Program-made: the position numbers and the translations under genes | Notes under the pieces: model-generated | Told to the model about the DNA's origin: nothing | The model's database searches: none | Seen by the model: only the letters and a program-made list of their open reading frames with translations | Source: Escherichia coli | Lineage (GTDB): Bacteria > Pseudomonadota > Gammaproteobacteria > Enterobacterales > Enterobacteriaceae | DNA: 3,746 nucleotides | Assembly: GCF_003334385.1 (NCBI RefSeq) | Contig: NZ_QOWN01000091.1 | Strand: one strand, 5' to 3' | Shown: piece by piece, positions 2,183-2,396 of the stretch | Numbering within the stretch: the stretch's first letter is position 1 | How the letters are laid out: each line of letters starts with the position of its first letter

Positions 2183-2371
2183 TGTAGTGGTTAATGGTCT
2201 GCGAAAAGGCAGCTGAATCTCTTCATCATGCAGAACGGAATTGCACACAACGGACTGATACTTCTCTGGCGGATGAGAGAGGGGAAGCATTTATGTCCGG
2301 GAAAAACCACTTTATCTGAGCATGCTGTTTTGTACCTGCCGGTATCCACATTTGTGGGTACCGGCTTTTTT
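2145..2371 (+). ncRNA. isrC: isrC-like leader RNA: agn43 5' leader from the predicted TSS to the leader terminator
   Basis: In E. coli K-12 the sRNA IsrC is annotated between yeeP and flu on the same strand. Here a promoter (2110-2138) and an intrinsic terminator (2339-2371) bracket about 225 nt immediately upstream of the flu start. The 5' end is inferred, not observed. Confidence 0.35.
2339..2371 (+). terminator. Intrinsic terminator/attenuator hairpin in the agn43 leader, 26 nt upstream of the Ag43 start codon
   Basis: Stem CCGGTATCCAC (2339-2349) pairs with GTGGGTACCGG (2354-2364), about 11 bp including one G-U pair, loop ATTT, followed by CTTTTTTATT (T-run 2366-2371). The Ag43 RBS AAGGAA (2384-2389) and ATG (2397) lie downstream of it. 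Confidence 0.55.
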
Positions 2372-2396
2372 ATTCACCCTCTGTAAGGAAAAGCTG

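Follow-up and report, generated by a model that had tools for sequence, protein, structure and literature searches.

A conserved intrinsic terminator and an allele-specific upstream open reading frame in the IsrC/agn43 leader of Escherichia coli

We analysed the leader of agn43 (flu), which encodes the adhesin Ag43, in a 3,746-nucleotide (nt) stretch of Escherichia coli DNA (contig NZ_QOWN01000091.1, assembly GCF_003334385.1; hereafter the window). The leader carries a conserved intrinsic terminator shortly before the Ag43 start codon, ATG 2397, and matches the family of the K-12 small RNA (sRNA) IsrC over its full length; an 8-codon upstream open reading frame (uORF), MSGKNHFI, precedes the terminator. 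It is highly probable that this region is the IsrC/agn43 terminator-attenuator and that, jointly with this, the uORF is not a leader peptide of the trp type. An earlier reading made from the letters alone (the sequence-only reading) had interpreted the leader as an attenuator coinciding with IsrC, with the uORF as its leader-peptide device. The attenuator, IsrC and antitermination parts of that interpretation were correct but had already been published for K-12, and are essentially a rediscovery. The uORF is a real small frame of one allele family, equipped with a Shine-Dalgarno (SD) sequence, and is not among the conserved functional components of the attenuator. The system as a whole is of a known kind; the allele form seen here is the commonest one, yet unstudied.

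In commensal and pathogenic E. coli alike, Ag43 is a major adhesin for self-aggregation and biofilm formation, and accounts of its expression usually consider only the Dam/OxyR phase switch. The leader terminator adds a growth-phase layer to this control, as has already been published for K-12. The K-12 leader, the only one studied experimentally, is a minority form that makes up roughly a quarter of the agn43-family leaders in complete genomes, and the majority type found in the window (A1, see below) has a different mid-section and a uORF of its own, directly next to an upstream start in frame with Ag43. Should read-through require that the leader is translated, control in the majority alleles may differ from that in K-12, which, if true, would bear on Ag43 expression in clinical strains and on reporter constructs built with or without the leader.

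The leader terminator and its identity with IsrC

The terminator stem spans 2338-2365 and comprises 12 pairs (eight G-C, one G-U) closed by a 4-nt loop, with six Ts (T6, 2366-2371) directly after it. The sequence-only reading had recognized the strong hairpin but had placed it at 2339-2364, short of the full stem; the T-run and, after it, the Ag43 ribosome-binding site and start codon were present as it described. Folded alone, the hairpin reached -22.3 kcal/mol. In silico folding of the surrounding segment (2290-2380), a check of the kind that had been suggested for 2290-2375, gave -28.9 kcal/mol (z = -3.7), and none of 200 shuffles was as stable, so that the terminator is well beyond chance. 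The element has the properties of an intrinsic terminator, namely a G+C-rich stem-loop with an adjoining U-tract and a structure that is kept in relatives. It is unidirectional, because no T-run follows the hairpin on the minus strand, and its T6 ends 26 nt before the Ag43 start codon.

Conservation was assessed with loci fetched by a probe that lies outside the terminator and consists of the Ag43 SD and first codons only. This retrieved 120 metagenomic loci which, together with loci from complete genomes, yielded 123 leaders (99 unique). The terminator was present in all 123, with 97.9% of cells paired. One pair of the stem occurred as U-A, U-G or C-G, the remaining variation was limited to the loop, and seven loci had one mismatch or deletion. 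The support for the structure is therefore one of conservation and not of covariation. The block at ~2333-2383 was nearly invariant in the 123 leaders and was the most conserved block of an otherwise mosaic leader; the stem is the same as in K-12, with a single difference in the loop. When one genome per species was scanned for the terminator pattern, the only match beyond E. coli was on a contig from a probably mis-binned metagenome-assembled genome (MAG), and the element thus looks confined to E. coli in the scanned collection. This sole match (L128, JAIJJM010000521.1, 'MAG: Collinsella sp.', a 2.3-kb contig) is almost certainly a mis-binned E. coli fragment.

Some loci departed from the common form. 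Six (among L028, L102, L123, L011 and related loci) have a weakened terminator with a C-to-A mismatch in the 5' arm (GCAGG) and T5 instead of T6, and fold at -16.7 kcal/mol compared to about -22 kcal/mol; one additional locus has a 1-nt deletion within the stem. The weakened loci may be natural variants with higher read-through. We also observed that, in the minimum-energy fold of the full leader, the U-tract (2366-2373) pairs with the A-rich Ag43 SD region (2383-2390; UAAGGAAAAG). The pairing is of the weak A-U kind and, on this model, might partly mask the Ag43 ribosome-binding site in read-through transcripts.

The proposed identity of the leader with IsrC was confirmed. Rfam family RF00124 (IS102, the family covering K-12 isrC) matched 2142-2378 on the plus strand, over model positions 1-206 of 206, with 72.7 bits (gathering score, 46; E = 2.3e-11). 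In MG1655, the isrC non-coding RNA is annotated at 2071317-2071511; its 5' end is the G of the first GATC, and its 3' end is the last (sixth) T of the homologous T6, 28 nt upstream of the flu ATG (flu starts at 2071539). The points of the window homologous to these ends are 2144 and 2371, between a GTPase ORF (ending at 2025) and ATG 2397. According to the passage of PMC5389530 that cites Wallecha 2014 (J Bacteriol 196:2728), flu expression is under antitermination control of IsrC, and 'IsrC sRNA (flu gene attenuation)' is listed in PMC5811629. The expectation that Ag43 expression needs read-through or antitermination was thus right, and in the same passage of PMC5389530 already published for K-12. 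Our literature search found no Term-seq data on isrC. Since the RF00124 match is full-length, isrC ends on the same T-run and antitermination has been published, the attenuator reading is right, but known.

Allele families and the upstream open reading frame

The 99 unique leaders fell into a window-like type A (68 leaders) and a K-12-like type B (31 leaders), and type A was divided into A1, with the uORF (55 leaders), and the cah-like A2 (13 leaders). In 5426 complete E. coli genomes the A1 cassette was the commonest, with 4406 places in 3049 genomes, followed by the K-12-type cassette (1901 places, 1762 genomes) and the A2 cassette (580 places, 557 genomes). Among the RefSeq records listed, none carried an RNA or small-ORF annotation over these leader cassettes. 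Within a 56-nt cassette that has near-identical flanks (Table 1), A1 is set apart from A2 by ~30 substitutions and a 1-nt indel, while K-12-type leaders could not be aligned over this cassette and alignment resumed only at ~2333. No conserved structure was found in the mid-leader, where Alifold and single-sequence folds of the A1, A2 and K-12 types gave differing local hairpins. The leader is a recombination mosaic, and several leaders of the K-12 type combine two subtypes and contain indels that shift the frame (loci L002, L003, L014, L048 and L107 among those listed). At one locus (L011, OGUK01010312.1), the promoter/GATC switch and the 5' leader are replaced, from ~110 nt 5' of the agn43 ATG, by a LacI-family-like N-terminal coding sequence, with the 3' leader and the terminator kept; this reflects either a chimeric assembly or an allele that lacks the Dam/OxyR switch.

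The uORF, from ATG 2293 through MSGKNHFI to TGA 2317-2319, is in the sequence exactly as first described, and so is its SD-like tract, except that the latter lies at 2277-2287 and not, as given, at 2276-2286. Its pairing with the anti-SD (-8.4 kcal/mol) exceeds that of the Ag43 main ATG (-6.1 kcal/mol). An ATG with an SD as good as this one was found in 9% of dinucleotide shuffles of the leader, and the uORF signal is therefore weaker evidence than the terminator. The uORF is notable, but the sequence alone is no proof that it matters. In the minimum-energy fold of the whole leader, the SD tract pairs with CUUCUCU at 2261-2267.

Within the unique A1 leaders, the uORF stop codon was kept in 55/55 and the start codon in 53/55. 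In the two remaining alleles the ATG is changed to CTG; both precede intact 948-aa genes, and a link between loss of the uORF and gene decay was rejected on these grounds (n = 2). The peptide variants S2P, G3R, G3E and N5K (four non-synonymous changes) stood against one synonymous change and, together with the two start losses, are too few for more than the statement that they seem compatible with no constraint on the peptide. The uORF was missing from all 13 unique A2 leaders and all 31 unique leaders of type B, in which the terminator is the same: A2 leaders have ACG at the position of the ATG, and B leaders have unrelated sequence.

Frames crossing the terminator and routes to read-through

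In K-12, the Rho-independent terminator reportedly lies 28 bp before the start codon and is active in vitro, and antitermination, whose mechanism is said to be unknown, reportedly weakens with culture age. Two in-frame start codons are said to flank the terminator, one on each side; translation from the upstream one reportedly raises expression, and its mutation reportedly lowers agn43 expression. The 28-nt distance was reproduced on K-12 DNA, and the K-12 leader indeed contains an ATG 52 codons ahead of that of flu, with an in-frame reading frame that runs through the terminator. The counterpart of this ATG in the window is ATG 2322, which was kept in 55/55 A1 leaders; no other in-frame ATG precedes the terminator in this allele. 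A further frame starting at ATG 2228 also crosses the terminator (Table 1), and its ATG is homologous to one that, in A2 leaders, opens an in-frame fusion with cah/Ag43. Overall, 99/99 unique leaders had at least one ATG frame crossing the terminator, either fused to Ag43 or stopping 2-17 nt before its ATG. This universal crossing ORF was not used as evidence of selection, because an ATG frame over the fixed hairpin is expected in 55-84% of dinucleotide-shuffled leaders. Crossing frames are this common in shuffles because all three frames are open over the hairpin, the T-run and the spacer.

When pyrBI (and pyrE) of E. coli are attenuated, ribosomes translate a leader ORF into or through the terminator, and a closely coupled ribosome blocks the hairpin. 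The agn43 leader probably works as follows. Transcription would begin at the GATC/OxyR switch (~2144), traverse the 255-nt leader and reach the terminator at 2338-2371. Terminated transcripts would be the ~228-nt IsrC RNA, and agn43 mRNA would come only from polymerases that read through, making read-through a second layer of control downstream of the Dam/OxyR phase switch. A ribosome that enters the hairpin on a leader frame, close behind the polymerase, would prevent the hairpin from forming, as in pyrBI and as indicated for K-12; such a ribosome-blocked hairpin would be the most likely mechanism of read-through. The frames available for this in the present allele would be those of ATG 2322 (in frame with Ag43) and of ATG 2228/2273 (stopping in the Ag43 SD). 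The role of the uORF, if any, would be to deliver ribosomes that reinitiate at ATG 2322. For this particular allele, we infer ribosome-mediated read-through tentatively, at a little short of even chances.

Several points weigh against these conclusions. The anti-SD scan of the leader found no SD for any of the crossing ATGs (2322, 2228 and 2273), and the crossing frames themselves are frequent in shuffled leaders, as described above. The terminator, its conservation, the identity with IsrC, the restriction of the uORF to one allele family and the lack of antiterminator pairing (see below) are our own observations, while termination and antitermination at this site are taken from the K-12 literature; that termination occurs in the allele of the window is inferred from its sequence and from K-12. 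Finally, the uORF has the strongest SD of the leader and keeps its ATG in 53/55 A1 variants, so that some function in A1 is possible.

Other explanations of the leader were weighed against ribosome-mediated read-through by the crossing frames. The strongest competitor, which we nevertheless consider doubtful, is that the uORF and the crossing frames are irrelevant, read-through being set by how leaky the terminator intrinsically is or by a trans-acting factor (a protein or sRNA). The high frequency of crossing ATG frames in shuffles, the lack of an SD at these ATGs and the poorly conserved, mosaic mid-leader without conserved structure all fit this explanation. However, the lower agn43 expression reported for K-12 on mutation of the upstream in-frame start speaks against it, all three frames stay open across the hairpin, the T-run and the spacer to at most 17 nt before the ATG in all alleles, and the leader contains no ops (RfaH) site at up to two mismatches, on which basis antitermination of the RfaH/ops type was rejected. 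An alternative that gives the uORF a part of its own, and which we regard as unlikely, is that its SD serves as the ribosome entry site of A1 leaders: ribosomes stopping at TGA 2317-2319 would reinitiate at ATG 2322 and translate through the terminator, which would block the hairpin and produce a precursor longer by 25 residues. The only good SD of the leader is indeed that of the uORF, ATG 2322 has none, and the spacing from stop to start is only 2 nt. Moreover, the TGA and ATG 2322 are each invariant in A1 leaders, the uORF ATG is nearly so, uORF and ATG 2322 are present together in A1 and absent together in A2, and ATG 2322 is the sole in-frame ATG before the terminator, like the upstream in-frame start of K-12. 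This co-occurrence may nonetheless be mere linkage inside one diverged 56-nt cassette; in addition, the two A1 alleles without the uORF ATG have intact genes, the predicted fold of the leader has the SD tract paired, and an equally good SD and ATG arise in 9% of shuffles. If reinitiation did occur, the uORF would be an antitermination device of the A1 allele that ties Ag43 output to translational capacity, and would supply an antitermination mechanism for an unstudied allele type with 4406 copies in 3049/5426 genomes.

Two further explanations fared worse. Under classical leader-peptide attenuation (as in trp, his and pheA), the position of the ribosome on the uORF would select between a terminator and an antiterminator fold. 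This was suggested by the sequence-only reading, and the order of short ORF, hairpin, T-run and gene does look superficially like an attenuator, with a good SD on the uORF. However, computed duplexes between 2142-2332 and the terminator's 5' arm plus loop reached only -13 kcal/mol at best, compared to -22.3 kcal/mol for the terminator, and 79% of shuffles were at least as good; antiterminator pairing was therefore rejected. MSGKNHFI contains no repeated residue and no run of a regulatory codon, and the small hairpin formed over the uORF, at -3 to -5 kcal/mol, is weak and lacks covariation at 2296/2320. The gap from the uORF stop codon to the stem, given earlier as about 20 nt, measured 18 nt. 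A terminating ribosome covers ~12-15 nt downstream of its A site, so that a ribosome at this stop would not cover the stem. Because the uORF is restricted to A1 (A2 and B leaders have the same terminator without it, and two A1 alleles have lost its ATG), no antiterminator or codon run was found and the stop lies 18 nt off, the uORF is not a trp/his-type leader peptide, and we give this explanation hardly any credence. It is also quite improbable that IsrC acts in trans as the main product, with the terminator serving to make the sRNA rather than to regulate Ag43. In its favour, IsrC is annotated and was detected as a discrete sRNA in K-12, its knock-down altered a lycopene-production phenotype (PMC10783499), and cyoD has been proposed as a target, by prediction only (PMC13168525). 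Nevertheless, the body of the RNA differs almost wholly between allele families, with only the promoter/GATC end and the terminator kept, the opposite of a conserved seed; there is no validated target, and the mechanism is described as undisclosed in PMC10783499.

Layout of the window and comparison with known systems

The window contains, in this order, a yeeP-type GTPase gene (ATG 1153 to 2025), of which a near-identical copy is annotated in RefSeq as "GTPase family protein", the agn43 regulatory region with three GATC sites, the leader, and the 5' part of agn43/flu from ATG 2397. RefSeq gives the same Ag43 start in near-identical alleles. The role of the GATC sites in Dam/OxyR switching of agn43 is established (Haagmans & van der Woude 2000, as described in a paper that cites it). 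The hexamers TTGCGT and TAGAAT were assigned as the putative agn43 promoter; they were not flagged by a generic promoter scan, because the -35 fits the consensus at only 3/6 positions.

Table 1 Positions of the features of the agn43 leader and its promoter region in the window.
Feature	Position	Strand	Basis
Intrinsic terminator, GCCGGUAUCCAC-AUUU-GUGGGUACCGGC followed by U6	2338..2371	+	Fold, conservation
Predicted IsrC-equivalent leader RNA, 228 nt, first GATC to last T	2144..2371	+	RF00124 match and alignment with MG1655 isrC
Purine-rich SD-like tract, GAGAGGGGAAG	2277..2287	+	Best anti-SD pairing in the leader, -8.4 kcal/mol; 9-nt gap to ATG 2293
8-codon uORF MSGKNHFI, A1-specific	2293..2319	+	ATG 2293-2295, TCC GGG AAA AAC CAC TTT ATC, TGA 2317-2319
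SD-less ATG 2 nt after the uORF stop (UGA-GC-AUG), in frame with Ag43 through the terminator; 25-codon N-terminal extension MLFCTCRYPHLWVPAFLFTLCKEKL	2322..2396	+	ORF list; anti-SD scan
52-codon ORF with internal ATG 2273, crossing the terminator and stopping at TAA 2384-2386 in the Ag43 SD region	2228..2386	+	ORF list
Variable cassette (56 nt), A1 versus A2	2269..2324	+	Leader alignment; ~30 substitutions and 1-nt indel, flanks near-identical
Putative agn43 promoter: -35 TTGCGT 2110-2115, 17-nt spacer, -10 TAGAAT 2133-2138	2110..2138	+	Sequence reading; aligns with the K-12 region just 5' of the annotated isrC start
Three GATC sites (2144, 2163, 2176) within inverted repeats, leader 5' end	2144..2179	+	Dam/OxyR phase-variation switch
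Ag43 SD AAGGA 2385-2389 and main start codon ATG 2397-2399	2385..2399	+	SD energy -6.1 kcal/mol, 6-nt gap

Two observations concern the neighbouring genes. The agn43 gene of the window is frameshifted at 3156-3163, where a run of eight Gs stands in place of GGGGGGT, so that the ORF from ATG 2397 stops at 3213-3215. A 99.8%-identical intact allele and 35 fetched loci have GGGGGGT, and of 128 loci only the window has the eight-G version, which is due to a private mutation or else to a sequencing error in the homopolymer. In addition, a boxA-like motif, TGCTGTTTAACAA, is located at 962-974 on the plus strand, 5' of the GTPase gene, with one mismatch compared to the rrn boxA (TGCTCTTTAACAA). Downstream of it come a long inverted repeat (arms 980-1003 and 1023-1045) and then, at 1098-1123, a hairpin that resembles a terminator, with UUUUGUCUUUUUU (-26 kcal/mol, z = -3.2). 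Together, the set at 962-1136 forms a nut-like arrangement whose strand is also that of the GTPase gene and agn43. The boxA-like motif was exact in 28/72 of the fetched loci having enough upstream DNA, and the region is multicopy and unannotated, with 9128 places in 4178/5426 E. coli genomes.

The closest known system is the K-12 agn43/flu leader (IsrC, RF00124). Both have the same locus order of GTPase gene, GATC switch, leader and agn43, an identical stem apart from the one loop difference, the T6 run and the downstream TTATTCACCCTC, a full-length Rfam match and an ATG before the terminator whose frame is that of Ag43. However, the K-12 leader is ~224 nt long compared to 255 nt here, the central ~150 nt are unalignable, and the in-frame upstream ATG lies 52 codons before the start in K-12 and 25 codons before it in the window. 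The allele of the window furthermore has the SD-equipped 8-codon uORF just before the in-frame ATG, which is absent in K-12, and a second crossing frame that ends in the Ag43 SD. Similar to pyrBI and pyrE, the leader frames span the terminator hairpin, an alternative antiterminator is not needed, and the distance of the ribosome behind RNA polymerase would govern read-through; unlike them, the leader shows no evident UTP-sensitive pause tract or nucleotide logic, has no SD before its crossing ATGs, and includes one crossing frame fused to the structural gene. With the trp, his, leu and pheA attenuators, the leader shares a short SD-equipped ORF before an intrinsic terminator that precedes a structural gene, but it differs from them in having no antiterminator (2:3) pairing, no regulatory codon run, a stop 18 nt short of the stem, and an ORF that is not conserved among the alleles sharing the terminator.
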